Origin: a virus
Direction: 5' to 3' (one strand)
IMG/VR virus record: IMGVR_UViG_3300030406_002001
Span: 3,850-67,849 of that record
DNA: 64,000 nucleotides
Shown here: in pieces, positions 29,647 through 64,000 of the stretch
How the letters are laid out: the number at the start of each line of letters is the position of its first letter
Numbering within the stretch: position 1 is the stretch's first letter
Position numbers and translations under genes: made by a program
Notes under the pieces: generated by a model
Databases searched by the model: none
Told to the model about the DNA's origin: nothing
Seen by the model: only the letters and a program-made list of their open reading frames with translations

Positions 29647-29847
29647 TTATATATCTAATATTTTAAAAAACAATGTTATCAATACTCCCATAATAGACAA
29701 AGTTGATCCCATTATTAATATCTCAAGTCTTTTAACTCGATAATCTAGTTTATCTAATAATGTTTGAACCATAGTCCTATACATAGCACACTCTTTTTCA
29801 TGTGCTTTCATTTCTGATTTCAAACTGCTGTATGATTGTCTAGCCAT
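29647..29847 (-). CDS. XhlA-like small membrane protein
   Basis: AHEKECAMYR coiled coil plus C-terminal TM; homologous to 62848-63042. Confidence 0.6.
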   Translation of the reverse strand: MARQSYSSLKSEMKAHEKECAMYRTMVQTLLDKLDYRVKRLEILIMGSTLSIMGVLITLFFKILDI

Positions 29848-30143
29848 TATTTAGGTTTCTCTGGCATAGTAACAGCTTTAGCTTTATCTACTGTGTCTAC
29901 ATCTTTAGTTATATCTCTTAACTTTTGTCTATATGTTTTCCAAGCATCTGACATAGTTAAATCAGACATACCCATCCAATCACATTCAGCAAGAAGGTTA
30001 GTTCTTTCTTCACGAATACTAACCATAAGTCTGTCATACTCACCATCAGCCCATTCTTTATCTCTTGCTTCCAGTTCTTTAATTTCATCGGCAGTAAGTT
30101 TTACCTCAACACCATTGACCATTTTAGTTTTATAAATAGACAT
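29847..30143 (-). CDS. Tail fibre assembly chaperone
   Basis: IREERTNLLAECDW...WKTYRQKLRDI...PEKP; 93/98 aa identical to 63042-63338. Confidence 0.85.
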   Translation of the reverse strand: MSIYKTKMVNGVEVKLTADEIKELEARDKEWADGEYDRLMVSIREERTNLLAECDWMGMSDLTMSDAWKTYRQKLRDITKDVDTVDKAKAVTMPEKPK

Positions 30144-30155
30144 ATTACCTCCTTT

Positions 30156-30791
30156 CTATTTTACAATTCCATAAACTGTTACTGTTCCAAATGATTCATA
30201 TTTTGTTGTTGTATGATTTAGTGAACTACCACTTCCACCATTACCTATTCCTAACATAAATGAAATAGTATCGTAAGATGTATTTGCAGTAGCAAGGTTC
30301 ATACCTATTTCATAATAATCTGTATTTGTAGTTCCATGTAATAATGAATTAAATATTACACACATTGGGTCTGTACTTACTTGTGGATTTAAAACATCAC
30401 AATACCCAGAAACATACATATCCTCATTTGCTTGAAAATTTTGAGCAAGTGTTCCTATATCATATCCATCACCATATAATACAGCGTGTTGATTTGCATC
30501 TGCTTGTGTGTAATGTAATGTATGTTTAATAGTTGTTGAACCTGTTGTACCTACACTACCACTACTTCCAAATCTAAATAATAATGCACCATTTCCAGCA
30601 TTAGATGTGCTAAGCTTTTCTCTTATATTATAATAAATTCTGTAATTTGTATAAGTAGAAGTAAAAACATTTGCAAAAACAAATCCTTCTGTTGCTTCTG
30701 AACCACTTGCTATTGTTGTTGATGATATTTTTACTAAACCACCTGTACTTACATCAGCGAGTGTTCTTGCATTTGCTCTAATTATTGCCAT
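30156..30791 (-). CDS. Tail fibre/receptor-binding module, variant 1
   Basis: Ser/Thr/Gly beta protein, GGLVK...YGIVK. Confidence 0.7.
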   Translation of the reverse strand: MAIIRANARTLADVSTGGLVKISSTTIASGSEATEGFVFANVFTSTYTNYRIYYNIREKLSTSNAGNGALLFRFGSSGSVGTTGSTTIKHTLHYTQADANQHAVLYGDGYDIGTLAQNFQANEDMYVSGYCDVLNPQVSTDPMCVIFNSLLHGTTNTDYYEIGMNLATANTSYDTISFMLGIGNGGSGSSLNHTTTKYESFGTVTVYGIVK

Positions 30792-30859
30792 TATTTTAAA
30801 ACTCCATATAAAACAGCATTACCTGCACTCATATTAGAACTTGCATGATAATATTTAAT
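30739..30859. repeat. Long direct repeat copy 1 (extent beyond 30859 unknown)
   Basis: Matches 63880-64000 with 3 substitutions, all in the first 35 bp. Confidence 0.95.
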
Positions 30860-31852
30860 TGCATCTATTCCTGTTGTTGTTCCTAAACCTATTACACCAT
30901 GTGCAACTACCACAGATGATGCATTATTCCATCCTGTTTGTAAATATTCAATAGCAACTCGTGAACCATTACTAACATTTCTTGGGTCATGAATTATTAT
31001 ATTACCTCTATATCCATGTGATTCACCAAAACTACCTAAAAGTTTACCATAACTACCATTTGATACACCATAAGTATTTACATTATTATTTGGTCTACCA
31101 GTAACTGCACACCAATAATATGCTGTATTATAATAACTGCTTTGATTAACACCTTTTATTTCGCATCTTATTTCACCAGTACCTGTTGCATGAGAGTGTG
31201 ATATAATAAGTGTTTGATACGTTGCACCATAAGCATATAATCCTGTAAATTCAATAAAGCTTTGATTAGTTGAATCTGTAACCTCTGCAAGTTTAACTAA
31301 ACCACCTGCACTAGCAAATTCCATTTGTCCTACTGCTGTAGCACCACTACCTGTTATACTTTTTACTTTAAGAAACTTATCTGCTGTAGGTGAATTGTCT
31401 GGTAACTTTAATGTCCAACTTTGTCCTGCTGAGTGGTCTGGACTCTTTAACTTTACTCCATGACTGTTTACCTCACAATTTAATTGTATTGCTCCCCCTT
31501 CACCACCTGCTCCTTTTGATATAAGTGTAGGTGCAGTAGCTAACTTATCATTCGTTACAGTATTATCACTTGGTGTTCCTATATTAAGAACATCACCTAA
31601 TACTATAATAAAATTTATTACATCACCTGTAACCAAATTACTTGCAAAAGTAATTGTATGATTTGAAATTGTAAAAGAACTGCCGGGATTTTGAATTATA
31701 CCATTAAGACTAACAAGCATGTGATTTGCACTTGCAGGACTAAAATTTGCAGAGTCTTTTTGCATAGTATATGATGCTTGACCATTAACAACAGATATGG
31801 TGTCTAGCTTTATAAAGTTTCCTGTTATAGGTTGATTTCCAATATAGGGCAT
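30791..31852 (-). CDS. Tail fibre protein
   Basis: MPYIGNQP start, LNGIIQNP, IQLNCEVNSHGVKLKSP, GGLVK...YGVLK. Confidence 0.75.
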   Translation of the reverse strand: MPYIGNQPITGNFIKLDTISVVNGQASYTMQKDSANFSPASANHMLVSLNGIIQNPGSSFTISNHTITFASNLVTGDVINFIIVLGDVLNIGTPSDNTVTNDKLATAPTLISKGAGGEGGAIQLNCEVNSHGVKLKSPDHSAGQSWTLKLPDNSPTADKFLKVKSITGSGATAVGQMEFASAGGLVKLAEVTDSTNQSFIEFTGLYAYGATYQTLIISHSHATGTGEIRCEIKGVNQSSYYNTAYYWCAVTGRPNNNVNTYGVSNGSYGKLLGSFGESHGYRGNIIIHDPRNVSNGSRVAIEYLQTGWNNASSVVVAHGVIGLGTTTGIDAIKYYHASSNMSAGNAVLYGVLK

Positions 31853-32355
31853 TAGTTTGCTACCTCCAACCAAATAACTGTACTAGGTGAACCTGAGTAA
31901 TTATTATTATTACTTCTATTAATTCGTAATATTGTATTGTTGCCTCCAGTTGAAACTTTACCTTGACATTTAACTGGTATTGCTGAACCATCAGTATTTG
32001 TAATACTTGTAAATATTGTTGAAGGCATATATGCATTATTATTTAATGATGTACTATTGTAAAAAACATGAGTTGCTACTGGTGTAGTTGATGTTGTTGA
32101 TAAAAAATCAGAACCATCTATTACCCATTTATAAAATAAATATGTATTAGTTCCACCATCAAAATTTGCAACACCAGATATAAGAACAATACTATTTGAA
32201 CTTGATGGTGTAAAACTACCAAAATCTAAATCATCTGCATAGGAAGTTGCACTTGCCCTTTCAGAGTTTTCTGTTATTTGTGTAATTTTATGACTCAATA
32301 GTTTTCCTCCAACACCTGTTGATAATGAACTTGCTAATATTTTACTTAATGGCAT
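31852..32355 (-). CDS. Tail fibre/receptor-binding module
   Basis: MPLSKI start, GGKLL...FTPSSSNSIVLI...LEVAN. Confidence 0.7.
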   Translation of the reverse strand: MPLSKILASSLSTGVGGKLLSHKITQITENSERASATSYADDLDFGSFTPSSSNSIVLISGVANFDGGTNTYLFYKWVIDGSDFLSTTSTTPVATHVFYNSTSLNNNAYMPSTIFTSITNTDGSAIPVKCQGKVSTGGNNTILRINRSNNNNYSGSPSTVIWLEVAN

Positions 32356-32358
32356 AAT

Positions 32359-32634
32359 CTATTCCTTTGGGTATTTGTCCTTAACTGTTTTTATTGTTTT
32401 TTTCCAACCATCTATTCCATTATGATATATATCATCTAATTGGTCTGGTATAGATGGATATTCTAATTCCCTTTTATATTGATACTCATTAGGGTCTTTC
32501 CAAGCATTAACCTTTGTCCAATCTATAGTAACTAATTTACCATCTTTGTCTTTTGCAACTATTGTTTTTTCTGTATTGCCATCAATAGAAATTACTGAAT
32601 TGTGTATTGCTCGTATAGCTTTATGATAATCCAT
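32359..32634 (-). CDS. Tail fibre chaperone-like protein
   Basis: YQYKRELEYPSIPDQLD...VKDKYPK. Confidence 0.65.
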   Translation of the reverse strand: MDYHKAIRAIHNSVISIDGNTEKTIVAKDKDGKLVTIDWTKVNAWKDPNEYQYKRELEYPSIPDQLDDIYHNGIDGWKKTIKTVKDKYPKE

Positions 32635-33470
32635 TATGCAGATACCTCTTGTGCTGTTAAAGAACTTGTGCCGCCGACTATTAGAGCATCATTTTGATTG
32701 CCATTAGGTCTATTAAGATTAAATGTTTCCCCACCTCGTACATATACTTGTAGTTTATATGTTATAGCATTTGTGGTTGAAGGTGTATCTAAAAGTTCAA
32801 ATCCAGAAGTATATATTTTATATTGTCCATTAGCTGAATGGGGTGTATTAAATCCAAAAGAAGCTTTTACTTGACTACTCAAAGATACTGCTGTTGATTG
32901 CCCTATATGTGTTGAATCTCTCAGAACGTTTATTCCACCATACATATTAGCCGTTCCACCATGTTGCATTACAACACGAATAAGTATTTTATTACTACTA
33001 GATGCTGGTGTAATAGAAAGTGTCATTCCAGTAATATCAACAAATGAACCACTTGTAGTAGAAAAAGTATCAGTTTTAAATGCTTGTACTACTTGTAATA
33101 TTTTACCTCCACCAGCTTCTGCAAAACTATTATCACCTCTTAAAAATGTTGTACTGTTTTTTGTACCTGTTGCTGACAACTGTGCTATTCCAACACTACC
33201 ACTTGCAGGATTAATTGTACCTACGGCTCTTCCTATATATACACAGTACATATCATCTGTACCTGCTGTCGCCTCTGTGAGCGTCAAACTTGTACCAGAA
33301 GCCGAATATGCTGTGGTAGGTTCTTGTCTTACATTATTAATAAATAAAGCAATATCATTAGCATTAGTTACAGATTGAGATAACGTATAACTTGTTGTAG
33401 CACTTACAGAAAAATCTTGTTTAACAAGTGATTGTGATGATGTTGTAGGTGCAGAACCAAGATAAGGCAT
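32634..33470 (-). CDS. Tail fibre protein
   Basis: MPYLGSAP, INNVRQEP, TTFLRGD, GGKILQVV...ITPASSSNKILI...QEVSA. Confidence 0.75.
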   Translation of the reverse strand: MPYLGSAPTTSSQSLVKQDFSVSATTSYTLSQSVTNANDIALFINNVRQEPTTAYSASGTSLTLTEATAGTDDMYCVYIGRAVGTINPASGSVGIAQLSATGTKNSTTFLRGDNSFAEAGGGKILQVVQAFKTDTFSTTSGSFVDITGMTLSITPASSSNKILIRVVMQHGGTANMYGGINVLRDSTHIGQSTAVSLSSQVKASFGFNTPHSANGQYKIYTSGFELLDTPSTTNAITYKLQVYVRGGETFNLNRPNGNQNDALIVGGTSSLTAQEVSA

Positions 33471-33814
33471 TAGGTTATCTCCATAATTGACAATGCAACA
33501 TCTAATGCCGTTGCGGCACTTGCTTGTGCTTTAATAACATCAGTAGTTTGCACGACAACTTTTTGTCCTCCAAACACCTCAAGTGTAGTATTAGCAGGGA
33601 TATCTACTCCTTTTAGTAAAAAAACATCTGCATTTGTTTCTGTATCATTTGTATTACTTACTAATTGTACATCTGCAGTTATTGCACTTGACGTTTTATT
33701 ACTTAATGCCATACCTAAAACAACAGTACTTGTGTTTGAAGGCACAGTATATATTGTATCTAACGAACTATTACTTACACTTGCTTTTGTTTTTACTTTA
33801 AATGTATTTGCCAT
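33470..33814 (-). CDS. Tail fibre adaptor-like protein
   Basis: MANTFK...IYTVPS...SIMEIT directly after the fibre anchor. Confidence 0.55.
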   Translation of the reverse strand: MANTFKVKTKASVSNSSLDTIYTVPSNTSTVVLGMALSNKTSSAITADVQLVSNTNDTETNADVFLLKGVDIPANTTLEVFGGQKVVVQTTDVIKAQASAATALDVALSIMEIT

Positions 33815-33827
33815 AATGTTTCCTATA

Positions 33828-34661
33828 CTATCCTAAAGCAATAGCTAATGCAACAGGGTCGGGTGCAGTATTAGTAATTGTTACTGTATCTGTTGCACTT
33901 ACTGCTACTTGCATATTTGTTCCTGCAGTAAATGTTAATGTATTTCCATCTGTTATAGTTTGTGTGTTTGACCCATCAGAAATAGTAAAAGTATCAAAAC
34001 TACCACTACCTGCCGGACCTGTTGCTCCTGTTGCACCTTGTGGTATACCAAGTGATAAAACACCTGTTGCTGAATTATATGATGCTGTAGCTGAAGCACC
34101 TGCAGATAATGTACTAACTGTAACACCACCTCCTAATGGTTGTGAACTTACAGCAACATTGCCGTCTGTATCAAACGATAATATTTTATTTGCTCTAGTT
34201 GCTTTTACAGGTAAAAAAGTTGAAACAGCAACAGTATCATAATCATATAATTTTATACTTCTACTACTTTGTTGGTCTACATCTGCAATCATAGATGCAA
34301 ATTTATCTTGTTGTGTGTTAAGCGCAGTAACATCAAATGTTCCATTTACAGGAAAATCACTTGTTCTTTCAATTGGTGTTTCTCTAATTATTACAACTAT
34401 ATCACCTGCTGTAAGTCCTGCACCAAATGAAACTGTACCACCGTCACCAAACTCATAAGCACTATCTGTTGTACTTGATGTGCCTGTTACTTTGTATGTA
34501 GTATTTGTAGAAGCACTACTATTAAATGTCATTAGTGCTGTATTTTTATATACTTTTAAATCTGTAATATTAAAAAATTCAAAAGGTACAGTAAACGCAG
34601 TTTGATTACTTGAAGCTGTATAGCTTACTCGAGGTGTATTATTTGCACTAAGTATTGTCAT
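33828..34661 (-). CDS. Tail fibre anchor (T7 gp17 N-terminal domain)
   Basis: TAFTVPFEFF, IIRETP, ALNTQQD; short collagen-like GATGATGPAG; ends ALAIALG. Confidence 0.85.
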   Translation of the reverse strand: MTILSANNTPRVSYTASSNQTAFTVPFEFFNITDLKVYKNTALMTFNSSASTNTTYKVTGTSSTTDSAYEFGDGGTVSFGAGLTAGDIVVIIRETPIERTSDFPVNGTFDVTALNTQQDKFASMIADVDQQSSRSIKLYDYDTVAVSTFLPVKATRANKILSFDTDGNVAVSSQPLGGGVTVSTLSAGASATASYNSATGVLSLGIPQGATGATGPAGSGSFDTFTISDGSNTQTITDGNTLTFTAGTNMQVAVSATDTVTITNTAPDPVALAIALG

Positions 34662-37600
34662 TCTTTTATTGTTTCTCTTACTATATCTCTATATGTTTGG
34701 TCCCAAAGCCATAGACTATTAAGTGGCACCATTCTTTGTATCATATCAACTCTTTCATTATAAGTAAGATTACCACTTCCAAAAGCATAAATCAAATCTG
34801 CAAATAATCCCGGCCCTGCACCTATAACTTCACCAACTGCGTCCATTTCATTTGCTCTACCAAATCTACCTTCTAAACCTAGTGCGGCTCGTGCTCCTAC
34901 CATATGTCCTGTTGTGCCCTCACTTATAGTTTCCATCATAAAATTCATATCTCCAAATAATGCTAATACACCCGATAATTCGACACCTCTTAAGATTTTT
35001 TCTTCTGTTTCTTTTTGTGCATAATATCTTGGATTTTTCAAATAATCACCTAACATACCCATAGATATTAATGCTGTTATACCACCCACTCTATTTACTT
35101 CTCTGTTTTGTGCAAGAGAAATTAAAACTTTTCTATTTGCCGCTATACCCCAACTAAAAAATTGAAATGGTAATCCAAGCCAAGCATTACTAAATTTACC
35201 ACCTAATTCTGTTTTTTGAAAACCCATTGTTCTAAACACAGGATTATCAAACCATTGCGCTAATTCTTCATTATTTAATCGTATAACTCCTGTCATCATA
35301 TTATACTGGTCTGTTGATGTAGGTGTTACAATTGTTCTTTGTGTATCACTCCATATAGCATATCCTAGTTTTCTTCTAGCATCCGCTCCACCACGTAACC
35401 CATCCCATTCCATAGCATTAGCTACTAAAGCTGAATCTCTTTTTTGTATAGGCATATTGGCGATAACATCTGCTGTTCGTTTATCTATACCATAACTAAG
35501 TAATCTTTCTTGCCCAAAATTATCAAGTTGCCCTTTATTCCATTTTATTGAATCTTCTAAAAATCTGTGCATAGCTACTAAACCTTGCATACGTTTCATA
35601 TGATGTGTCCAAGGTGCTAAACCATTTATCATATAGAATGGTGCTTGTGCTCTTTCAAAAGGTTGATTGACATATTTATCAAACTTACCACCTAATCTGC
35701 CACCTAGTGATTCACCTACATCACCAAATATTCTACGTGGTGCTGTATCTAATGTCATTTCTACAATAGGCGATAAATAATCTAATTCACGAACTTGTCT
35801 GCGATATAAGTCTAGACTTTGTAACCAAGGTCGTATTGCATATTTGTATGTATCAGAAAACCCATTGACTAATATTGGTCTTGCTAAATCTGGTAAGGCA
35901 CTAAATATTACTCTACCCATATAAGCTAAACTTGCCCAGTTTCTTAACAGTTTAGTTGTACGTTGACTAAACCCTGCAGGATTTTGTGTATTTAATATAC
36001 CCAGTATTTTATCTTTTTCATCTCTCAAATTATTAATAATCTGATTGCGTTTTGTTGAATCAATATTTTTTTCTAATAGTTTTATTTCTAAATTGTCTAA
36101 AAAATTTACCATATGCGTATCACCAAACTCTCTTGTTATTTCTACAGCGGCACCCATCCTACGAGAATATCCTCTTAAAATAAAATCTACGTCTGTTTCA
36201 ATAAAATCTTCAACTAATTCATTAGGTATATCAAATTCTCTTTGTAATAAATTACGTGTACCTACTTTGTATCTACCATCAGCATCTTTTGCATATCCCG
36301 CAACTCCTTCAATATCTTGAGCATCAACTTCAATATCCATAATATTATTATATATTTCATCTACTCTATTATTTAATTCTCTAGTTGTTAAAGCGTTACT
36401 TCTAGGCTGTGATTGTATATATTTTCTTAAAACACCTTTAAAAGCATCAACATTTTCTAATATTGCATCTCTGCGCCATATTCTTGGTAAATAATTTGGG
36501 TCATCTATGCTCTTTTTAGGTAAATCTTCTATATTTTGCCTACGTTTTGCCTCATTTTCTAGTTTTTGTGCTATTTGTTGTAATCTTTTCTTAGATTCTA
36601 AACGTAGAAATGGTTTTTTTTTGTGTTGTTCTAATAATTTACGTGCAAGTTCTGCGTTTCCTGCTTTCGCCAAGCTAAAATTATTTAAACTGCCTTGGCC
36701 TTGATACATATCTAATCGTTCTATTTCTTTGTTGTAATATTTAAAGTAGTTACGCAATGTTTTTAATGAATTTTTAACTGTATTACGTACACTTGTTATT
36801 TGTATATTATCAACTAAGTCTGGATTTATTAAATATCGACCTAAATCTTCTGTATATTGTTTTTTTGATATTTTTATACTGTCTTGTCCAATAGTACTTG
36901 CATCTTCTAATTGTTGTGTAGCTTTAGAAACTAAACTATCTAATGCTAAAGAACCTCTAGCTATTTTTTGACGTATAATTCCAGAATTTTCATCAATACC
37001 AACAATTTTATTAAAATCGGCATCTATAGATTTAAGTGTTGCTATAAGTTTTGCATTGTGTGTAGTAGATAACTTCATAATAATGCTTGGGTTTGAAGCA
37101 ATACCTTGGTCTACAGCTTTTGTAACTGTACCAAAATCACCAAAAGCTAGTGCCGCCCTTTGTACAATACTTGTTATTTCTTTATTTTTTGACCCAATGT
37201 TTCTACGTGTAAAATTTAACAAAGAGCCAACATTTGTTATACCTTCTACTGCTTGAAAAAAACGATTTGTTTTTGTTTCAAAAGACACATCACTCTCTTG
37301 TGCAATATCTTTGATTACTTCTTCGTTAATACGATTTTCATATGTAGCAATAGATTCATCCTTTTTTTTCTTTGGTAAAACTTTGGCTTTCATTATTTCT
37401 TTACGTATTATAAACTTTACATACTCATCACTATTTGGAATAAGATTAGGGTTTAATGGTTTGGCACCACGTATTGGTGGTTGTAGCCATCTTCCGTCCA
37501 TATATTGTTTTTTTGCTCTTACAATATCTATTTCTAATTCATCTGTTTTTGGATTGTATTTAGCAAGTTTTCTACGTGTTTTAGCTTGATACCCATCAGG

Positions 37601-54063: not shown

Positions 54064-54204
54064 AACCGAACCTTAACAGAAAAAAAAATAAAAAGCAACG
54101 AACCTTGAACAACTTTAACGAGAGGATGGTACTTCTACTATGGTGGCGTCAGCTGTTTTTCTAACCTACCCTATGATTTATACTTGCGTTGCGGTGTAAA
54201 AATC

Positions 54205-54567: not shown

Positions 54568-54722
54568 AACTACTAACTCTTCTTATACTTGTTAATCTTT
54601 CATTTGTCAACATACCATGTATCATTGAGATACTACACCTATGAAAAGATATGCTGAGCATACCAGAACGGCTAAGAAGCCGTTCTTTCTTTTCAAAGCT
54701 TCCGTATCTCTTTTATAATAAT

Positions 54723-55019: not shown

Positions 55020-55053
55020 GTAATATTAACTCATAATAAAAAGGATAAACATT

Positions 55054-55572
55054 ATGAAACAACCAAAAAATAAAACAATTGGTAGTGTTGCAAAAATAGT
55101 AAACACTATTGTAACTGAGTTAGACCGAACATATACTGCAGGTCTACTCAATCAGTATGACGACCCATCTGCGACCTTAGTTGGTTCAATGATTGAGTCT
55201 TGTCAGTACCTAATAACTAATGATAAAGCAAAAAATACAACTCTATACATCTCAAACGAAGCAGATGAAAAATACAATCTGTATCTAAGAGAGCTTGAGG
55301 ATAAAAAAGAACAACATAATGACCCTAAATTCGCAGGGCCTAAACGTTTTGATAACCTTGCTCTTGAAGAAGCAGTTGACTTAGTTGAAGGTAACGGAGG
55401 CGACGCTATTGATAGAAAAGTTATCGCTAACTCAAACCTTGAAGCCATCAAAATGCTACAATCAGACTTGTTTGATTGTTACAAAGCAATGTTTGACAGA
55501 GAGTACGTACTTGTTGATGAAAGAAAATCATCAACAGTAACTAAGCGTCCATCACGTAAGATGATTGCTTAA
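55054..55572 (+). CDS. First early gene, hypothetical
   Basis: AAGGA RBS, own terminator. Confidence 0.75.
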   Translation: MKQPKNKTIGSVAKIVNTIVTELDRTYTAGLLNQYDDPSATLVGSMIESCQYLITNDKAKNTTLYISNEADEKYNLYLRELEDKKEQHNDPKFAGPKRFDNLALEEAVDLVEGNGGDAIDRKVIANSNLEAIKMLQSDLFDCYKAMFDREYVLVDERKSSTVTKRPSRKMIA

Positions 55573-55579
55573 CTAAACT

Positions 55580-55617
55580 AAACCCAAGTGTTACCTTCCT
55601 GACACTTGGGTTTTTTT
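55580..55617 (+). terminator. Intrinsic terminator
   Basis: AAACCCAAGTGTT/GACACTTGGGTTT plus T-run. Confidence 0.85.
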
Positions 55618-55684
55618 ATGATTACGGAACACCCCCTTGTGCTTCGCACGGCGGGGGTGCCACCTTCGTATCATTTCACTATCA

Positions 55685-55739
55685 TCAGTACAAAATAAAA
55701 TCAGTACGACTTGCAATGCAAATGTCAGTACTATATAAT
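55685..55739 (+). promoter_or_regulatory. Early promoter with three TCAGTAC repeats
   Basis: TTGCAA-17-TATAAT; TCAGTAC at 55685, 55701, 55725. Confidence 0.7.
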
Positions 55740-55759
55740 AACAATGAAAGGATAATGTT

Positions 55760-56101
55760 ATGTCAAAATATCTAAATGAAGATTCTCGTAAACATCATTA
55801 CGAAAGTACAATCGAGTCAACTCACCTCAAGCATATCAATTATATCAATACAATGAGGCAGTATGCAAATGAATATCAAGCAACAGTACAAGAAAAAAGT
55901 GTTGATATACCTGCACCTATGTTAGAAAAAGCCATGCATAGCTACAAAAAAATATTTGATATTACACACGCTATGCTAATAGCAATTGAAAACAATATGT
56001 ATGATAAAACAGTTTGGGAACAAGGTATGCTAAGTGTAAACCAATACGTAGACAGTATGGAAACAATTGCAAACTATGGAGGTACAAATGGCAAAAATTA
56101 G
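55760..56101 (+). CDS. Early hypothetical protein
   Basis: AAGGA RBS after promoter. Confidence 0.65.
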   Translation: MSKYLNEDSRKHHYESTIESTHLKHINYINTMRQYANEYQATVQEKSVDIPAPMLEKAMHSYKKIFDITHAMLIAIENNMYDKTVWEQGMLSVNQYVDSMETIANYGGTNGKN

Positions 56102-56306
56102 ACCAACACGCAGAACAACACTAAAACTAAAAAGAACACTAGCAAGATATCAAGAAGAATATTACATCAATGACCAAGCTATACTTGCAGGTCAATGTGA
56201 TGATGAAGAGCGGCAAAAATTTTTAGACAAAGAAATCAAAGCTATATGTAATTTACTAAACTATGATTTTGTACAAACAATGGAGCAATACTATGAAAAC
56301 AAATGA
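56088..56306 (+). CDS. Early hypothetical protein
   Basis: GGAGG RBS before ATG 56088. Confidence 0.6.
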   Translation: MAKIRPTRRTTLKLKRTLARYQEEYYINDQAILAGQCDDEERQKFLDKEIKAICNLLNYDFVQTMEQYYENK

Positions 56307-56454
56307 ACGTAAAGAACTGCGCACACAAATACAAAATGTAATCACAGCAATGGAAAAAGATATGCAAGTACAGAACATCTACACAAAACATGTCTTATAC
56401 AAATACGTTGCTTCATTACAAACTATTGACAATTATCTAGAGAATTCAACGTAG
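56293..56454 (+). CDS. Early hypothetical protein
   Basis: GGAG RBS before ATG 56293. Confidence 0.55.
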   Translation: MKTNERKELRTQIQNVITAMEKDMQVQNIYTKHVLYKYVASLQTIDNYLENST

Positions 56455-56652
56455 CTTCAATGTGCATTTAGTGTACGTAGATGCAACTGCGAATAGGTTT
56501 TGTCCTTTGTACCTACCTGACTCCACGGCTAACAAACAAGGACATTTAAACTGTAGCTACATCAATGTAGAGGAGGGCTGTAAAAAGCGTACCATTTAAT
56601 GTACAAAGATGTAGCTTACAGCTATATCAACTAAACTAACAAGGAGATAAAT

Positions 56653-57531
56653 ATGTTAGACATTGTAAACAAAAATGACTATGACTTTCCTGTAGAAATG
56701 GTAGAACTCGAAGCCATCAATACAGAAGGACAAGTTGGCAAAGATAACTACAAAGTACCTAAAGACTTGGCACGTGCTTGTGTACGTACTGATACCGGAC
56801 AGGTACTAGGTATTCACGGCAGTAAATACAAACCAATCAATCACAATACTGTTGTCAATACAATTGAATCAAGTGTGGATAAAATGTTAGCAACATTGAA
56901 CAAGTCAATTGATTCAGAAGATATTGATTACAAGGTAAATGTATATGACAACGGCGCAAAAATGCGAGGGTCATATACATTCAAGAACCTTGTAATACAA
57001 CCAAAACTAGATGATATTGTAGCATTTCGTATCAACTTTTTCAATAGCTATGACCAATCTTGGGCATTTCAATCTATTGCAGATGGCCTTCGACTTTGGT
57101 GCCTCAATGGGTGCACAACACCTGCAACAGCTACAAAAGTTAGATACAAACATACAACCAAAGTATCTATTGATTGTGTCAAACAAAAAATGATTGATGG
57201 TTTCAATTATTTCAATGACCAAGAAGGTACATTCAAAATGTATGCACTTACAGATGTACAAGACCATGCAGTTGAATCATTTTTCAAACAAACATTATGT
57301 AAAACATTTACACGTAGCACATCTTCATTGCCGTGGAATATGTTTCAGTTTGAAGAACTTATGCGTCAGTACGACAAAGAAAAGTCTACACTTGGTAGAA
57401 ACTTATGGGCTGTATACAATACTATGACCCATTGGGCTACCCATGTAGGTAATCACAAAACACAAAAACGCAGAGAAGATGAAGTAGCTAAAGCACTTTC
57501 ATCACATCAATCAATCTTTACAGGAGTCTAA
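56653..57531 (+). CDS. DUF932-family protein
   Basis: VRTDTGQVLG...YKPINH, NSYD, RLWCLNG, NLWAVYNTMTHWATH. Confidence 0.8.
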   Translation: MLDIVNKNDYDFPVEMVELEAINTEGQVGKDNYKVPKDLARACVRTDTGQVLGIHGSKYKPINHNTVVNTIESSVDKMLATLNKSIDSEDIDYKVNVYDNGAKMRGSYTFKNLVIQPKLDDIVAFRINFFNSYDQSWAFQSIADGLRLWCLNGCTTPATATKVRYKHTTKVSIDCVKQKMIDGFNYFNDQEGTFKMYALTDVQDHAVESFFKQTLCKTFTRSTSSLPWNMFQFEELMRQYDKEKSTLGRNLWAVYNTMTHWATHVGNHKTQKRREDEVAKALSSHQSIFTGV

Positions 57532-57532
57532 T

Positions 57533-57763
57533 ATGAGTCAAATACAACAAGTTTTAGAACATCTTAAGCTACACAGAAGTATTACACCAATCGAAGCACT
57601 AAATATGTATGCTTCTTTTAGATTAAGTGCTATAATTTTTGAGCTACGAAAAGAACATTATATCAATACAGTACTTGTAGATGATGTAAACAAATTTGGC
57701 AAACCAGTACAATATGCCAAATATATGTATGTCGGCGCAATAGAAAGTGAGGGGAAGAAATGA
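57533..57763 (+). CDS. Winged HTH protein
   Basis: VLEHL...SITPIEAL...FRLSAIIFELRK. Confidence 0.75.
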   Translation: MSQIQQVLEHLKLHRSITPIEALNMYASFRLSAIIFELRKEHYINTVLVDDVNKFGKPVQYAKYMYVGAIESEGKK

Positions 57764-58254
57764 ACTACAAACAGCTAGTTCAAGAACTAGCACAGGTACG
57801 AAAAGACTTACGGCTTTGTAGCCGTGCTCTATCCGATAGGATAGGCGTGGCGGAATCGTCCGTAAGTCTTTGGGAGTGTGGCAAAAAAGTGCCTAATGCA
57901 CAACTGCTTATGGATTGGTGTACTGCACTAGGTACAACACTTACTATGCTTCACGGCAAGACAACCATTTCAATTGAATATCAACCTTGCCAATACACAC
58001 AAGATTGGATAACCAAAACTTACGGAGAGCACTATGACTATAACCAAGAACGAGAAATCTTTATTGACTATTACAAATCAACTGGAGCAATTAAAAGCGA
58101 TTGGCACGCTTCCTTCAGAAACTGGCTCAGACGAGCACACAAGTTTGCCAATGCACGAAAAAATACGGAAAGCAACTTGGTCGTCAGTTCCGAGGGCGTT
58201 CAAGAAAGACGTCAACGAATCTCTAATGTTACTAACATACGACTTAAGACATAA
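57760..58254 (+). CDS. XRE HTH fused to initiator-like C-terminal domain
   Basis: LSDRIGVAESSVSLWECGKKVP; FIDYY...DWHASFRNWLRRA. Confidence 0.65.
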   Translation: MNYKQLVQELAQVRKDLRLCSRALSDRIGVAESSVSLWECGKKVPNAQLLMDWCTALGTTLTMLHGKTTISIEYQPCQYTQDWITKTYGEHYDYNQEREIFIDYYKSTGAIKSDWHASFRNWLRRAHKFANARKNTESNLVVSSEGVQERRQRISNVTNIRLKT

Positions 58255-58651
58255 ACAAAGAACAGATGCTATCAGTAATGCGGCCTCATTTTATTTAGAT
58301 GATGTCTTACACAAAATCAAAGCATGGTACAAGGTAATGCAACCTGCTTCAACTAAAACAGTTGGTATGGTGCTAGAAACTATTGCATCAACATTCAGTT
58401 GCAATGTACCTAATGAACTTGGACTAAGTGTTTATATAAAAATACTAAGTCGTTTCCCAGAATTTGTACTGACATATAATACAGAAAAAATTATTGCCAG
58501 TGCAAAATGGCGAAGGCTTCCATTACCTAAAGAATTTCTTGATGTAATGGAGCCAGATTTTGAACGCCACAAGCTGTGGCTACAAAACTTTCACCAAACC
58601 TATTTGTCGTTTGCACAATGGCGACAAAAACGGTATAATACTACAATATAA
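58034..58651 (+). CDS. Possible helicase loader-like protein (start uncertain)
   Basis: Follows initiator-like gene; RRLPLPKEF motif. Confidence 0.45.
   Translation: MTITKNEKSLLTITNQLEQLKAIGTLPSETGSDEHTSLPMHEKIRKATWSSVPRAFKKDVNESLMLLTYDLRHKQRTDAISNAASFYLDDVLHKIKAWYKVMQPASTKTVGMVLETIASTFSCNVPNELGLSVYIKILSRFPEFVLTYNTEKIIASAKWRRLPLPKEFLDVMEPDFERHKLWLQNFHQTYLSFAQWRQKRYNTTI
58611..58639 (+). promoter_or_regulatory. Promoter of recombination operon
   Basis: TTGCAC-17-TATAAT. Confidence 0.65.
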
Positions 58652-58674
58652 TAACAATAAAAGGAGTTAATCTC

Positions 58675-59475
58675 ATGCATAAAAGAAAACACACTATTGG
58701 TGGTAGTGATGCCACTAGAATTATGAAAGGCGATTGGTACAATCTATACAATGAAATCAAAGGTTTTCAAAAACCAGAGGATTTGGAATGGAAAGTATCA
58801 GTATGTATTGGTCAAGCCACCGAAGCACTTAATCGTAAATTTTTTGAACATGAAAGTGGTATGCAAGTATCTACATATCGTTGGTCTGATGCACAGTTTC
58901 CAGACAGAGTAGATTGGCGTCATGCAAGTTATGATGGCATTTGCCTAACCTCTACACAAAATTGGGTGCCACTTGAATGTAAACATACTTACCATACTAA
59001 TAATATACAAAAAGTTGTTGAAACATACTATGCACAACTACATCATTATATGCTTGTGTCTGGTATTGACTTTATTTATTTATCTGTATTCTTTGGTAAC
59101 TTTGAATATCAATATTGCAAAGTCAGTAAAGATAAAAAATATATGAATGAACTTATCAAACGAACTGATAAGTTCAAACAAATGTTAGATACAGATACTA
59201 TCCCATCACGTGACTTAGAAGAACACAAACATATCAAATCAATTGTACTAGATGACATGATTTCAATTGACTATGACAAAAAGAAAAACAATCAGTTTAT
59301 GTCACTAGCTACAGAATGGTGTTCAACAAAAGATACACATGATTTACATAAAGAATTAGGTAAACAATTAAAAGATATAATACCTAGTAATTGTAGGTTT
59401 GCCTCTGGTTCGGGCCTCCAAATAGCCCGAAACAAGGCAAACCATTTGTCAATTCGTAAAATGAAAGGAGCATAA
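58675..59475 (+). CDS. YqaJ-like exonuclease
   Basis: IGGSDA, ASYDG, LECKHT, YYAQLHHYM. Confidence 0.88.
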   Translation: MHKRKHTIGGSDATRIMKGDWYNLYNEIKGFQKPEDLEWKVSVCIGQATEALNRKFFEHESGMQVSTYRWSDAQFPDRVDWRHASYDGICLTSTQNWVPLECKHTYHTNNIQKVVETYYAQLHHYMLVSGIDFIYLSVFFGNFEYQYCKVSKDKKYMNELIKRTDKFKQMLDTDTIPSRDLEEHKHIKSIVLDDMISIDYDKKKNNQFMSLATEWCSTKDTHDLHKELGKQLKDIIPSNCRFASGSGLQIARNKANHLSIRKMKGA

Positions 59476-59976
59476 ATGACAAATACAATCAAAACTAATA
59501 TGGATATTTGGAAAACTTTAGGTAGAACTAACCCCAAATATACCAAACCATTTCAAAAGTTTGGTGGTAAAACACTTACAACTATTGACCCAATGTATCA
59601 GATTATGATGATGACCGACTTGTTTGGCCCGGTAGGTCAAGGTTGGTCATATGACGTAAACTATACCTACACAGACAAATGTGTGTTTGCAGAAGTATCT
59701 ATCAGATATTCTGTAGCCACAAAACTTGATAAACAATGGTACAAATATGGCCCAGTATCTTCTGTACAAGCCTTGTATAAAAAGAATGGTGGGCTTGATG
59801 ATGAAGCACCAAAGAAAGCAATGACAGATGCTATGACAAAAGCATTTAGTCACCTTGGAATGTCAGCTGATGTCTTTCTTGGGTTATTTGATAGCAGTAA
59901 ATACATTGAAAAAACAAGAGAACACTTTGCAGTAATTGATGCAGAAAGGAGAGTATCTAATGGCAAGTCTGAATGA
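59476..59976 (+). CDS. Rad52/Sak-like single-strand annealing protein
   Basis: FGPVGQGW, KKAMTDAMTKAFSHLG; between exonuclease and SSB. Confidence 0.7.
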   Translation: MTNTIKTNMDIWKTLGRTNPKYTKPFQKFGGKTLTTIDPMYQIMMMTDLFGPVGQGWSYDVNYTYTDKCVFAEVSIRYSVATKLDKQWYKYGPVSSVQALYKKNGGLDDEAPKKAMTDAMTKAFSHLGMSADVFLGLFDSSKYIEKTREHFAVIDAERRVSNGKSE

Positions 59977-60403
59977 AGTACAACTTATCGGTAATACAGG
60001 TATTGACCCCGATATAAAACAAACATCTAATGGTGGCAAGTATGCAATCTTTACTTTTGCAACTACAGATAAAAGAAAAGATGCACCAGATACAACACAA
60101 TGGCATAAAGTTGTGTGTTGGGATGAACGATTAGCTGATACAATTGAACGCTTTGTAAAAAAAGGTGACAGACTTTATATCAAAGGTAAACTTGTATATA
60201 GAACGTTCGAACATGAAGGTGTAGAAAAAGAAAAAGCAGAAGTGCATATGGAAAAATTTTCTAGCAAACTTGTAATGCTTGGAGGTAATGCACCCAAAAA
60301 AGTATCTATGATTACTTCAAAAGAAGAAACACGACCATCTGATACAGAAGAAAAAACAGAAGAAAAAGTATACAGAACATTTGAAGATGAGGTACCATAC
60401 TAA
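59960..60403 (+). CDS. ssb: Single-stranded DNA-binding protein
   Basis: LNEVQLIGN.G.DP, TQWHKVV, KKGDRLYIKGKL, tail EDEVPY. Confidence 0.9.
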   Translation: MASLNEVQLIGNTGIDPDIKQTSNGGKYAIFTFATTDKRKDAPDTTQWHKVVCWDERLADTIERFVKKGDRLYIKGKLVYRTFEHEGVEKEKAEVHMEKFSSKLVMLGGNAPKKVSMITSKEETRPSDTEEKTEEKVYRTFEDEVPY

Positions 60404-60615
60404 TGACTAAAAATGAACTCAAGGTTTTGAAGTTCGTACGGAACTTCATTGCACAAAATACCTACAGCCCTAGCTATGAGGAAATTGCACAGGGCTGTGG
60501 GTACTCTGCAGGTGCAAACGCTTACAGAATTTGTATGCAACTCGTACAAAAAGGCTACCTTGCTAAAGAACAAGGCAAATGGCGGAACTTGGTGGTAGCT
60601 AATGGGAAAGTTTAG
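60403..60615 (+). CDS. LexA-like DNA-binding domain protein
   Basis: YSPSYEEIA...LVQKGYL. Confidence 0.75.
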   Translation: MTKNELKVLKFVRNFIAQNTYSPSYEEIAQGCGYSAGANAYRICMQLVQKGYLAKEQGKWRNLVVANGKV

Positions 60616-60916
60616 TAAGCGTAAAGGCTACAGAGTTGAGGCAAAGCTTGTCAAAGAACTTAATCGAGGTGGCATTGAATGTCGTAGACAGCCTATGTCT
60701 GGTGCTATACAAGACTTTCCCCATGATATAGAAATACGTGAACCAAGAATGACGGTAGAAGTAAAAGCACGAGCAAATGGTGAAGGCTTTAAAACTTTAG
60801 AGCGTTGGAAAGGAGGTGCAGATATACTAGCACTTCACAAAGACCACGGCACTACACTTATGTGCCTTGATATTAATCTATTTATTGAACTATTAACAAG
60901 AAAGGAAACACAATGA
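60602..60916 (+). CDS. Holliday-junction-resolvase-like nuclease
   Basis: KRKGYRVE, PMSGA, HDI...VEVK. Confidence 0.72.
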   Translation: MGKFSKRKGYRVEAKLVKELNRGGIECRRQPMSGAIQDFPHDIEIREPRMTVEVKARANGEGFKTLERWKGGADILALHKDHGTTLMCLDINLFIELLTRKETQ

Positions 60917-61107
60917 GTATTGTATTTAGTTTATTTCTACTTTTAAATGTAGCTAATCCAGAGAACAGAGCATTTTTTGAACAAGCATTAGCTAATCACA
61001 AACAATATAATTGCACTTTTGTTTTTAAAGGTATATCTGCGCCGAAAGAAAGACCTGCAATGACTATGTTTGGATATACTGCCTTCAAACAAATCTGTAA
61101 AAAATAG
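60913..61107 (+). CDS. Small 2-Cys exported-type protein (cassette gene 1)
   Basis: Homologous to 26632-26835. Confidence 0.7.
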   Translation: MSIVFSLFLLLNVANPENRAFFEQALANHKQYNCTFVFKGISAPKERPAMTMFGYTAFKQICKK

Positions 61108-61316
61108 TGTTTAAATTATTTGTAGTTACGCTTTGGTTAGAATATGAAGGCAGAATGTATGTAAAATATGCTGTTCCATTGCTTTCAAAATGTAATGTAT
61201 TTACATGGTGGAGTATACAGGAACAATTTTTATCATCTAAATTTAATGTGGTTGCAATGAAATGCACACGCTTTAGAGATTTTCGGTATGATAAACGTAT
61301 TTATTCGTTAGAATAG
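61107..61316 (+). CDS. Small 2-Cys protein (cassette gene 2)
   Basis: 43/69 identical, ungapped, to 26835-27050. Confidence 0.75.
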   Translation: MFKLFVVTLWLEYEGRMYVKYAVPLLSKCNVFTWWSIQEQFLSSKFNVVAMKCTRFRDFRYDKRIYSLE

Positions 61317-61514
61317 ATACAATAAAGCCATAACAATAGCTACAACGAGGATAGCTGAGCGTACAGGGCGATTCATCATATAACGATACTTCATTCGCCA
61401 GTACTCTGTTTTGCTCATTCTCGACCATATATCGGTCTTAACTTTACCCTCTGTATTAATATATATAGGTTTATCATTATTTTGTGTATTTTTTCTTGGT
61501 CTACCTCTTGGCAT
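61308..61514 (-). CDS. Small membrane protein with N-terminal PRGRP motif
   Basis: GGAG RBS before MPRGRPRK; C-terminal TM. Confidence 0.55.
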   Translation of the reverse strand: MPRGRPRKNTQNNDKPIYINTEGKVKTDIWSRMSKTEYWRMKYRYMMNRPVRSAILVVAIVMALLYLF

Positions 61515-61920
61515 TGCGTTTCTCCATTTTATTCTGTAGCACACCAAATGCTCCTTTACCTACACGAAGTCCATATGAGGCACTAACAGAAATTAATATT
61601 ATATGAGTGAACCAATCCGGTGTTGACTTCTCTAAGAATTCAAAACCTTGACGTACAGAATCTTGTGTGAATGGTAAAAATGAGCAAATCAATATACCAC
61701 CGATAACAAGAGTCCAAAATTCGTCTTTCCATGACTCTCCCATTTGGTCAGTTAGACTTTGCTGTAGGTCTATCTCACCTGCCGCTTGTTTCTTTGCTAT
61801 CTCGGCACGACTTTTTGCAATAGCTACTCGTGTTTCTGTTTCGGCTTTTATCTTTTGATTGCGACCTTCAAGCCATGTTGAAACTACAGAACCTATTGGG
61901 CCAAGTAATGCACCTATCAT
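61501..61920 (-). CDS. Holin-like membrane protein
   Basis: SWKDEFWT, PDWF, SASYGLR; adjacent to endolysin. Confidence 0.65.
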   Translation of the reverse strand: MIGALLGPIGSVVSTWLEGRNQKIKAETETRVAIAKSRAEIAKKQAAGEIDLQQSLTDQMGESWKDEFWTLVIGGILICSFLPFTQDSVRQGFEFLEKSTPDWFTHIILISVSASYGLRVGKGAFGVLQNKMEKRNAKR

Positions 61921-62369
61921 TTTATTAGTCCTTTTCTATACCCGTTGACCTTATCATAGGTTAAAACTTCTTGTCTATTGTTTTCTTGTACCAGTGAAAC
62001 GTGAACCCAACCACTATTAGTTTCTCCTGTATAGCACTCCAATATACATTGGTCAAAATCAAGTGATGTAACAATAAGGTCTGCAAGGTCATAGGTTGAT
62101 GTACCAAATACTTCAATATCAACAGCATTGCCTACACAATGTTGACTTTTAGATGATGAACCAATCGCTTCACTTAACGGAGGACAGCGATAACCACTTG
62201 TAATTACAATCGGTTTCTGCACAAGTGTTCGTAATGGTTCTAAAAGATTGGTAGCCAAATGGGTGAGGTTGGTAATATGTAATGGGGAAGGATAATTGTC
62301 TATACCTAATCTCTCAGCCATTTGGCTTTTAGTAAATTCTCTTAATGTAAAATGTGGACTTAATTGCAC
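61917..62369 (-). CDS. Endolysin, peptidase M15
   Basis: LSPHFTLREF, ITSGYRC, SQH..G.AVD, WVHVS. Confidence 0.9.
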   Translation of the reverse strand: MQLSPHFTLREFTKSQMAERLGIDNYPSPLHITNLTHLATNLLEPLRTLVQKPIVITSGYRCPPLSEAIGSSSKSQHCVGNAVDIEVFGTSTYDLADLIVTSLDFDQCILECYTGETNSGWVHVSLVQENNRQEVLTYDKVNGYRKGLIK

Positions 62370-62848
62370 TAAATAAATCCTTTCATCTTCAAGAGAAATC
62401 CAAAGTAATTATATATCACAATACCTGATATAATAAGAACTATTGTAATAATTACAATATCTCTGTTTCTTTTTTTTATTCTTTCCATTTCTCGTAATTG
62501 TTGTTTTTTTTTGGCTCTATGCTCCGCTATCTCAGCTTGTAATCGTTCCCATTGCCCGGCATCTCCATATAATAAAAAAATTTCACGCATTTCTTTTCTC
62601 ATTCTACGCAATTCTTCTTTACGAAAATGGGCTTCGATTGCTGTTTGTTCTGTTGCAGAAAACTTACCAAATACTTTACCTACAAAACTTCCTTTTTTTG
62701 CCGCCGCTATATCTATATTTGCTTCTGCATTTGCCCATCTCTGCACATGACCACCTAATTGCGACAAATCTTTTCCTACTTTAATTGCTTCTTGAATTGC
62801 ATTAGTGGCAGTTTTTAACACAGCAAATGCACTGATAGGGTCTATCAT
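62369..62848 (-). CDS. Coiled-coil protein with C-terminal TM
   Basis: Homologous to 28902-29366. Confidence 0.7.
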   Translation of the reverse strand: MIDPISAFAVLKTATNAIQEAIKVGKDLSQLGGHVQRWANAEANIDIAAAKKGSFVGKVFGKFSATEQTAIEAHFRKEELRRMRKEMREIFLLYGDAGQWERLQAEIAEHRAKKKQQLREMERIKKRNRDIVIITIVLIISGIVIYNYFGFLLKMKGFI

Positions 62849-63042
62849 TAGAATACCTTAAATATTATAGTTAATCCTACTCCTAATATAGATATTGTAC
62901 TGGTCATTGAAAGTAGTTCTAATCGTTTAATTCTACTTTCTAGATTATCAAGACTGCGTTGTGTAGAAGAACGATATACAGCACACTCACGTTCGTGTGC
63001 TTCCATCTCTGCCGCAACATCATGTATAGTTCTTGTGTCCAT
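62848..63042 (-). CDS. XhlA-like small membrane protein
   Basis: Homologous to 29647-29847. Confidence 0.6.
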   Translation of the reverse strand: MDTRTIHDVAAEMEAHERECAVYRSSTQRSLDNLESRIKRLELLSMTSTISILGVGLTIIFKVF

Positions 63043-63338
63043 TATTTCGGTTTCTCTGGCATAGTAACAGCTTTTGCTTTCTCAACTGTATCTACATCTT
63101 TGGTTATATCTCTTAATTTTTGTCTATAAGTTTTCCAATCAGCAGACATAGTTACATCTGACATACCCATCCAATCACATTCAGCTAATAAATTAGTTCT
63201 TTCTTCACGAATACTAGCCATAAGTCTGTCATACTCACCATCAGCCCACTCTTTATCTCTAGCTTCAAGTTCTTTGATTTCGTCAGCAGTAAGTTTTACC
63301 TCAACACCATTAACCATTTTTGTTTTATAAATAGACAT
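63042..63338 (-). CDS. Tail fibre assembly chaperone
   Basis: 93/98 aa identical to 29847-30143. Confidence 0.85.
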   Translation of the reverse strand: MSIYKTKMVNGVEVKLTADEIKELEARDKEWADGEYDRLMASIREERTNLLAECDWMGMSDVTMSADWKTYRQKLRDITKDVDTVEKAKAVTMPEKPK

Positions 63339-63353
63339 ATTTACCTCCTTTCT

Positions 63354-63932
63354 TTATTTTTGTAATCCATATAAAGTAAATGTTCCATCAGCAAAATTAC
63401 CACTATCTAAACTAAATTCTATATAATTGAGAACAACTGATTTTGTATATTGCCATGCCTCTTGAGCTACATTACGATAAAATTGACCTGTTCCTGACCT
63501 TTGCACAAGTTCATGCCTAATATGTAAACTAAGTGTTGCATCTCTTAAACCATCTATACTAAACATTCCACTTGCATGGTCGGCAACGGTAGTATGATTA
63601 CTAAAATCACTTATGGCATAATCAGTTTTTGTAGACCCATTTTGTGCTGCCGCTGAACTTCCTAGTCTTGAATATTGATAACCATAGTTAAAAGTTCCTG
63701 TTTCAAATGAACTACCATTATCTGTGGAATATCTTGACCTTAATTTAGCACCTTGAGTAACAGGATTCAAACCTTGATAAGATAAAATATATTTATCATA
63801 AGTATCCGTAATTACTGTGTTGTCAAATGTAACAGTTGCTTGTGCTGAAGTAATATCTGTTGTTTGTAATTTAATCAATCCACCTGTACTTACATCAGCA
63901 AGTGTTCTTGAGTTTGCTCTAATTATTGCCAT
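63354..63932 (-). CDS. Tail fibre/receptor-binding module, variant 2
   Basis: First 21 aa nearly identical to 30156-30791, then diverges; ends YGLQK. Confidence 0.7.
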   Translation of the reverse strand: MAIIRANSRTLADVSTGGLIKLQTTDITSAQATVTFDNTVITDTYDKYILSYQGLNPVTQGAKLRSRYSTDNGSSFETGTFNYGYQYSRLGSSAAAQNGSTKTDYAISDFSNHTTVADHASGMFSIDGLRDATLSLHIRHELVQRSGTGQFYRNVAQEAWQYTKSVVLNYIEFSLDSGNFADGTFTLYGLQK

Positions 63933-64000
63933 TATTTTAAAACTCCATATAAAACAGCATTACCTGCACTCATATTAGAACTTGCATGATAATATTTAAT
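63880..64000. repeat. Long direct repeat copy 2 (runs off window); includes 3' end of a second copy of the 30791-31852 fibre gene
   Basis: Matches 30739-30859. Confidence 0.95.

Follow-up and report, generated by a model that had tools for sequence, protein, structure and literature searches.

A 67.8-kb marine virus record holding two pelagiphage-like podovirus genomes, very probably joined during assembly

Does the IMG/VR virus record IMGVR_UViG_3300030406_002001 describe one virus or two? The record is a single contig of 67,849 bases, classed as linear in IMG/VR and with a CheckV completeness of 100%. We analysed its bases 3850-67849, a stretch of 64,000 nucleotides (nt) called the window below; 3,849 nt of the contig lie upstream of it, and window position 64000 coincides with the contig end. 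The record consists of two collinear podovirus genomes placed head to tail, both cut within the same tail-fibre gene. We call them unit 1 (genome A) and unit 2 (genome B). The join between them is very probably an artefact of assembly, by which two pelagiphage-like podovirus genomes were strung together.

Two gene sets and the repeats at the join

Both units carry a T7-like virion module, including large internal virion proteins. A preliminary description of the window had claimed two full gene sets, and genes for the portal, the major capsid protein, the nozzle, TerS, TerL and lysis were located in both units (Table 1). For the scaffold, the claim is supported by family matches in unit 1, but the unit 2 gene was recognized by its position only. 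The two TerL proteins had been described as different types; both match phrog_2, yet blastp found no hit between them at E<=1e-3. The core proteins of the two units show 23-33% amino acid identity overall. In blastp, the identities were 23-28% for the tubular proteins, 28-29% for the portal and 31% for the major capsid protein; local alignment gave 31% for the portal and 33% for the capsid protein. The G+C content in the window is 26-37%.

The switch from unit 1 to unit 2 lies within sequence that is exactly common to both genomes. An 88-nt exact repeat, S1, spans the end of the fibre gene 30791-31873 and the start of the gene 30156-30791 at the join; the contig itself terminates in this repeat, window position 64000 being the last base of the second copy. 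Another exact repeat, S2 (89 nt), is separated from the first copy of S1 by 772 nt (30860-31631). Two further exact matches, of 58 nt and 56 nt, were found in the same cassette of tail-fibre genes.

The preliminary description had reported two pairs of near-identical sequences and no others. The positions were correct, but the identity was lower than reported: 29844-30143 is 91% identical to 63039-63338, and 30717-30859, a 143-nt island across the boundary of the genes 30156-30791 and 30791-31873, is 92% identical to 63858-64000, with just the final 88 nt exact. Nor are they the only pairs. Window 31377-32387 (87.5%) and 33120-33471 (84.9%) match the first 2.2 kb of the contig, upstream of the window. 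The proposed figure-of-eight topology is in keeping with a join and an end in one repeat, but the additional 89-, 58- and 56-nt repeats make the figure less simple. No sequence beyond 64000 leads back to position 1, a continuation raised in the same description, because the contig stops there.

Circular closure of the contig would leave ~457 nt missing between its end and its start. If this gap equals the corresponding length in unit 2, unit 1 has a total of ~35.2 kb.

Relatives, contig depth and the origin of the join

Each part of the record occurs elsewhere as a separate complete genome (G001 for unit 1, G002-G006 for unit 2), and locus L002 closes unit 2. G001, the IMG/VR record behind loci L055 and L082, has 34,605 nt, is 91% complete by CheckV and is classed as linear. 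It is 95-98% identical to unit 1 over most of its length. Its order is window 19611-30157, a cassette, the contig-start part (-1942..-188, 97.4%) and 6205-16837, with a return to 16865, so that the whole gene circle is covered. Its initial 98 nt are found again, unchanged, at the other end, where the copy stops one base short of the terminus (L245, L246). This order and the end repeat imply a closed unit-1-type genome of 34.5 kb. G001 is probably a complete genome that was overlooked by the end-repeat test.

For unit 2, locus L002 has the right end of the unit (62367-63428, 95.6%) joined to 30800-33991. Of the 26 100-nt bins with a value over 30800-33991, 23 show an identity of 95-100%; two more bins have no value. 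In L030, the unit 2 right end (56279-63404, 95.2%) is joined to 33120-36375 at 80%. Five relatives of unit 2 with 70-83% DNA identity (G002-G006) are all 100% complete at 33,593-34,378 nt, and four of the five have direct terminal repeats.

We compared the best 80 of 516 chaperone loci in IMG/VR, and the best 80 portal loci of 190 for unit 1 and of 348 for unit 2. With backbones assigned at >=80% identity, three of the 80 chaperone loci were A-A and one was B-B; none was A-B or B-A, and in the other 76 an assignment of both sides was not possible. The longest contigs among the best 80 portal loci had 38,215 nt for the unit 1 type and 42,167 nt for the unit 2 type. By reading of the two best-80 lists, no contig name was common to both portal sets.

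The depths of the two units were compared on the Logan contigs of four runs (X1, X3, X5 and X6) over window 20860-40859, with medians taken by hand over bins of unit 1 only (20860-29530, n=13) and of unit 2 only (34200-40859, n=10). The metagenomes holding the sequence are marine or seawater. X1, in which a fraction of 0.91 of the sampled words was contained (0.89 in X2 and 0.17-0.28 in X7-X20), may be the source run. The median depths of unit 1 and unit 2 were 22.8 and 13.45 in X1 (ratio 1.7), 23.1 and 2.5 in X3 (ratio 9), 2.4 and 7.8 in X5 (ratio 0.3), and 5.0 and 2.2 in X6 (ratio 2.3), a range of ~30-fold over the four runs. In X1, long pieces of unit 1 with 0-2 differing letters had depths of 20.4, 22.6, 20.9 and 21.7, and those of unit 2 with 0-5 differing letters had 11.7, 11.4, 12.3 and 13.8. 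Such unequal and shifting ratios cannot be produced by a single molecule with one copy of each unit. The covariation of abundance that the preliminary description had wanted checked is absent from these contig depths, in which 95-99% relatives are included: the units vary independently. Even depth over both units in every run, as a cointegrate would give, was not observed.

Several points weigh against an assembly artefact. The depths come from Logan contigs and not from reads, and the k-mer depth of contigs is a poor measure. The pieces in X3, X5 and X6 are often 95-99% relatives and not the same strains; from stretches with little or no contig cover in these runs (e.g. X6 39536-40202, depth 0) we drew no inference. 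A depth step had been expected near 30-31 kb, and the units do differ in depth, but in X1 the drop to ~13x is at ~34.2 kb and not at the 30.86-kb join. Because S1 and S2 are both long and exact, it is ambiguous to which unit the segment 30860-31631 between them belongs, although L002 favours unit 2. Between S1 and the contig start ~457 nt are missing, a gap that a simple figure-of-eight walk leaves unaccounted for. Finally, the adjacency at S1 was not reproduced: 30190-30716 stood beside 30860-31300 in none of the 80 chaperone loci, and 63390-63857 beside 30860-31300 also in none. Neither the A-B nor the B-B adjacency was found, since almost every contig has a different distal gene between chaperone and fibre gene.

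The displaced step in X1 could be explained by inflation of the cassette bins (29.5-34.2 kb), which had 23-55x. We attribute this to summation over other phages that carry the cassette. In support of this explanation, the chaperone bin alone had 19.5x in X5 and 24.7x in X6, with 1-5x beside it, and loci L030 and L024 showed 94-100% identity at 33200-33600 and ~80% further on.

The preliminary description had regarded an assembly chimera as the most likely origin of the record. It is favoured by the two-unit anatomy, by the exact 88-nt repeat in which both the join and the contig end lie, by depths that are unequal and vary independently, and by complete relatives with a single unit. Two pelagiphage-like podoviruses of ~33-35 kb each would have co-occurred in the sampled seawater. 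The short stretches in which they agree exactly (88, 89, 58 and 56 nt) would fuse both genome circles into one tangle of the k-mer graph: at any k up to 88, the 88-nt stretch would be a node common to both and the 89-nt stretch a second one, and with k up to 55 there would be four. The assembler would have gone round A, crossed at a shared stretch, gone round B and halted at the shared stretch again. S2 is a second possible crossing point in such a graph. The product would be a linear contig of 67.8 kb, twice the natural size, filed as a 100%-complete virus. Both this route and the value of k are inferred.

A real cointegrate or hetero-concatemer, in which co-infection and recombination through the cassette gave a ~68-kb dimer that was sequenced as such, is very unlikely. 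The 85-92% homology over ~3.7 kb and the exact runs of 88 and 89 nt would suffice for homologous recombination, both units occur in the same runs (X1 and X2), and unit 2 encodes a RecE-like exonuclease and SSB. T7-like phages replicate through concatemers. However, the units are 1.7-fold apart in depth in X1 and their ratio runs from 0.3 to 9, an A-B backbone was seen in none of the 80 best chaperone loci, and an assembler would not prefer the path of a rare intermediate. The complete relatives have 33.6-34.6 kb, so the capsid would presumably be too small for 68 kb. Even less probable is a join that is real at low frequency, with the 143-nt island 30717-30859 acting as a recombination hot spot between pelagiphage lineages in a co-infected SAR11 cell. 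If this were true, the A-B contig would be a captured hetero-concatemer, an intermediate that moves distal fibre genes and chaperones between lineages.

Two complete units in head-to-tail order might also suggest the tandem integration of two related prophages in a bacterial chromosome, which we consider highly implausible. There is no host DNA at the contig ends, both of which lie in the same tail-fibre gene. No tRNA genes were found, and no integrase family was detected among 60 open reading frames (ORFs) scanned against PHROGs. The boundary of the units is inside the fibre gene, in the stretch of highest similarity of a structural gene and not at an attachment site, and the record is an IMG/VR virus record. 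Tandem prophages were rejected on the missing host flanks, tRNA and integrase family and on this boundary. One real ~68-kb phage with two diverged copies of every module is hardly conceivable: CheckV rates the record as 100% complete, but all core genes are doubled at 23-33% identity, the replication modules are unrelated (primase-helicase versus RecE/SSB), each of its halves corresponds to complete genomes half as long, and the two units differ in depth.

The tail-fibre cassette and the other genes

The cassette that contains the join is shared between the units in patches, with 85-92% DNA identity over ~3.7 kb. The chaperone at 29847-30143 matches its Pfam family with 45.1 bits, against a gathering cut-off of 26.6, and its two copies are identical at 95% of amino acids and 91% of nucleotides, with a synonymous divergence (dS) of 0.47. 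In the next gene, 30156-30791, the alignment with the unit 2 counterpart is limited to 95 N-terminal residues with 49% amino acid identity. The N-terminal 185-193 amino acids of the fibre protein 30791-31873 share 84% identity with the copy that is cut off by the contig start (dS 0.28); this protein matches the fibre protein gp28 of the T7-like cyanophage P-SCSP1u (PDB 8i4m, E 3.4e-20). In the second fibre protein (32634-33470), the N-terminal 117 amino acids are 91% identical to the unit 1 copy (dS 0.55) and are followed by an unrelated C-terminal part. Nor do the units have the C-terminal part of 30156-30791 in common.

Other genes of the cassette are much less alike. Amino acid identity between the units is 34% for 32359-32634 (91 amino acids; dS 0.87) and 38% for 33470-33814 (dS 0.84). 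Outside the cassette, dS was 0.80, 0.83 and 1.64 for three lysis-side genes, 1.00 for the portal and 1.57 for the capsid protein. The shared segments have a dS of 0.27-0.55, against 0.80-1.64 for the other genes compared. This difference indicates that pieces of the cassette were exchanged well after the two backbones had diverged, but, with 9-15% divergence in DNA, not recently. The shared parts are mostly virion-proximal ones and the chaperone; the distal parts, which are likely to bind receptors, differ. Of the recently exchanged host-recognition module in the preliminary description, the exchange after the backbone split is upheld; its recency is contradicted by the dS values, and the distal fibre parts are not shared.

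Pfam detected the chaperone family alone among seven cassette proteins at E<=0.01, and no T7 tail-fibre N-terminal domain or C1q. A sequence search of PDB with 32634-33470 gave nothing meaningful (the best match was an antibody chain, E 0.44). The protein of 33828-34661 weakly resembled a putative tail fiber (PDB 7z47, E 2e-4).

IMG/VR holds 516 relatives of the chaperone, and 42 of the best 80 have 83-95% amino acid identity. They occur on unit-1-like, unit-2-like and other backbones, so the sharing looks like a draw on a common pool and not like a pairwise swap. Beneath the artefact the biology is ordinary: the lineages take fibre N-terminal domains, the small protein and the chaperone from a pool that is common to many marine podoviruses.

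The surroundings of these genes vary. Copies of the chaperone that are >=95% identical occur in other genomic contexts in X5 and X6. There, contigs match rightwards from 29847, and the break is exactly at the stop codon, with 255 unrelated nt to the left. In G001 (12375-14015, locus L055), a relative of the 167-amino-acid gene (window 31857-32316, 83.5%) adjoins the chaperone and is followed by a fibre N-terminus. Unit 1 has the 211-amino-acid gene at that place; the gene order of the cassette is shuffled among close relatives.

The replication modules of the two units are mutually unrelated. That of unit 1 comprises a primosomal protein, a primase, a DnaB-like helicase and an exonuclease, with a radical-SAM protein in addition. 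Unit 2 has the RecE-like exonuclease, a second exonuclease and SSB, and in addition a DUF932 protein. The radical-SAM domain protein of unit 1 (20884-21894; phrog_9298, E 5e-49) and an acyl-CoA N-acyltransferase-like protein (14061-14486; phrog_4470, E 2.5e-28) had no detected counterpart in unit 2. RNA polymerase had no hit among the ORFs scanned, and no Rfam family of structured RNA was found in the window at gathering scores. One unit 1 bin, 24862-25528, which covers the primosomal-protein gene 24749-25126 and the following spacer, had a depth of 50.1 in X5 and 65.7 in X6 versus ~0.3-7.5 in the other unit 1 bins, and is probably shared with much more abundant phages.

Comparison with close relatives revealed three variable places in the unit 1 lineage. 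A stretch of 287 nt at 25305-25591, with an ORF of 57 amino acids (25389-25562), is absent from G001, which has ~33 other bases instead; contigs of X1, X3 and X5 carry 36-38 other letters (joints 25304/25305 to 25595/25598). This is a small insertion/deletion polymorphism in the early region. At 28076-28460, most of the holin gene is exchanged in G001 for ~350 unrelated bases between flanks of 95-97% identity. An X3 contig has the same replacement (joint 28075 to 28461, with 352 letters between), which looks like an allelic swap. The second swapped module is formed by three internal virion (ejection) protein genes (1-6205 and 180 nt upstream), which match G001 in short pieces at 67-70%, with flanks of 97-98% identity on both sides.

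Table 1. Coordinates of the units, exact repeats and genes in the window
Feature	Position	Strand	Remarks
Unit 1 (genome A)	Contig start to 30859		Unit-1-only part in window 1..30771; 3,849 nt upstream; pelagiphage-like podovirus
Unit 2 (genome B)	30772-64000		30860..63912 between S1 copies; circle-like period of 33,141 nt including S1; pelagiphage-like podovirus
S1, first copy	30772..30859		88-nt exact repeat of 63913-64000; switch from unit 1 to unit 2
S1, second copy	63913..64000		Final 88 bases of contig
S2	31632..31720		89-nt exact repeat of contig bases 317-405, upstream of window
Tail-fibre assembly chaperone, unit 1	29847..30143	-	98 amino acids; PF16778 Phage_tail_APC; phrog_4912 tail fiber assembly, E 5.9e-14
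Tail-fibre assembly chaperone, unit 2	63042..63338	-	98 amino acids
Distal cassette gene, unit 1	30156..30791	-	211 amino acids; no family match
Distal cassette gene, unit 2	63354..63932	-	192 amino acids; counterpart of 30156-30791, C-terminal part differs
Tail fibre protein	30791..31873	-	360 amino acids; phrog_18673 tail fiber, E 2.5e-41
Small cassette protein	31852..32355	-	167 amino acids; no family match; 82% amino acid identity to unit 1 copy over full length; dS 0.27
Second tail fibre protein	32634..33470	-	278 amino acids; phrog_6942 and phrog_18673 tail fiber
Lineage-specific tail/fibre protein	33828..34661	-	277 amino acids; phrog_1640 and phrog_6518; 28% amino acid identity to unit 1
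Portal, unit 1	11943-13607	-	phrog_332, E 6e-168
Portal, unit 2	47425-49041	-	phrog_332, E 2e-97; 28-31% amino acid identity to unit 1 portal
Major capsid protein, unit 1	9916-10779		phrog_3437
Major capsid protein, unit 2	44924-45748		phrog_3437
Tubular tail protein A, unit 1	8718-9299		phrog_394
Tubular tail protein A, unit 2	44014-44631		phrog_394
Tubular tail protein B (nozzle), unit 1	6226-8718		phrog_376
Tubular tail protein B (nozzle), unit 2	41379-44012		phrog_376
TerL, unit 1	15420-16832	-	phrog_2 and phrog_31467
TerL, unit 2	49376-50881	-	phrog_2
TerS-like, unit 1	17374-17796		
TerS-like, unit 2	54205-54567		
Scaffold, unit 1	10920-11750		phrog_3742/phrog_458
Scaffold, unit 2	46331-47116		Position only; no family match
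Holin, unit 1	28071-28472		phrog_3427
Lysozyme-like, unit 1	28472-28909		
Endolysin, unit 2	61917-62369		

Kinship with pelagiphages and comparison with known systems

Both units are related in sequence to cultured Pelagibacter phages. In megablast against 50,697 phage records, Pelagibacter phages EXVC032P and EXVC031P were the only matches: the unit 1 portal DNA showed 81% identity to EXVC032P (6% of the query covered), and for unit 2, 16% of a 25-kb query aligned with EXVC031P, with 78% DNA identity. Matches to pieces of the cassette, with 69-82% identity, were found in 19 records, and 11 of the 19 are Pelagibacter phages of several types (69-73%) with genomes of 34.6-54.8 kb. Isolates that match the cassette have genomes about as long as one unit, for example HTVC010P with 34,892 nt and EXVC031P with 34,238 nt. 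Judged by these similarities, both units would be podophages of SAR11.

The join itself has no biological meaning as an artefact. As long as the 67.8-kb record carries no flag, it biases genome-size statistics upwards, causes two viral populations to be treated as one in clustering and read recruitment, and could lead to mistaken reports of giant or duplicated pelagiphage genomes. We recommend dividing it at the repeat common to both units, so that it no longer counts as one complete 68-kb virus. The split yields one complete and one nearly complete genome from two little-sampled pelagiphage lineages.

Errors of this kind are treated in the COBRA paper (PMC10914622). According to the parts of it available to us, de Bruijn-graph assemblers break at multiple paths, chimeric joins arise during assembly, and the cases tested include regions that several genomes share. 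As in those cases, the join and the contig end here lie in one exact repeat. Unlike the usual break described there, the walk would have passed the repeat and given a complete heterodimer.

Like the HTVC010P-kind and EXVC isolates (EXVC032P Baldr and EXVC031P Hodr), both units have a low G+C content, a T7-like structural module and relatives of 33.6-34.6 kb. They differ in that neither unit is close to these isolates over most of its length, and in that two genomes stand in one record. For HTVC010P-like fibres, Mizuno, Ghai and Rodriguez-Valera (2014, PMC3909814) report, in the sections at hand, that the N-termini are conserved and recruit many reads, that the C-termini vary, and that some pelagiphage fibre modules persist across oceans; they speak of 'metaviromic islands'. 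Similarly, two fibre proteins here keep N-termini of 84-91% identity, one of the two has an unrelated C-terminus, and the unit 1 C-terminal part of the other is missing from the contig. In contrast to the fibres in those sections, the conserved N-termini here bridge lineages whose virion cores are 23-33% identical, and no C1q was found in the seven proteins.

Sharing across lineages is also described in the excerpts we have of a preprint by Zhang et al. (2019, 10.1101/2019.12.14.876532). In HTVC106P, the tail fibre and several of the structural proteins have homologues in HTVC010P, but the portal, capsid and scaffold show no more than a distant relationship to other phages. The sharing seen here is of that kind, in different phages, and these excerpts are without DNA-level or dS figures. 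The present cassette is a clean example of it, with fibre N-termini and a chaperone that are 84-95% identical in amino acids across lineages with virion cores of 23-33%, and it agrees with the published view of host-recognition modules in marine phages. The sharing of fibres and chaperones is therefore a kind of mosaicism that has already been published and is no new principle; each of the two genomes adds a new member to a pelagiphage lineage.

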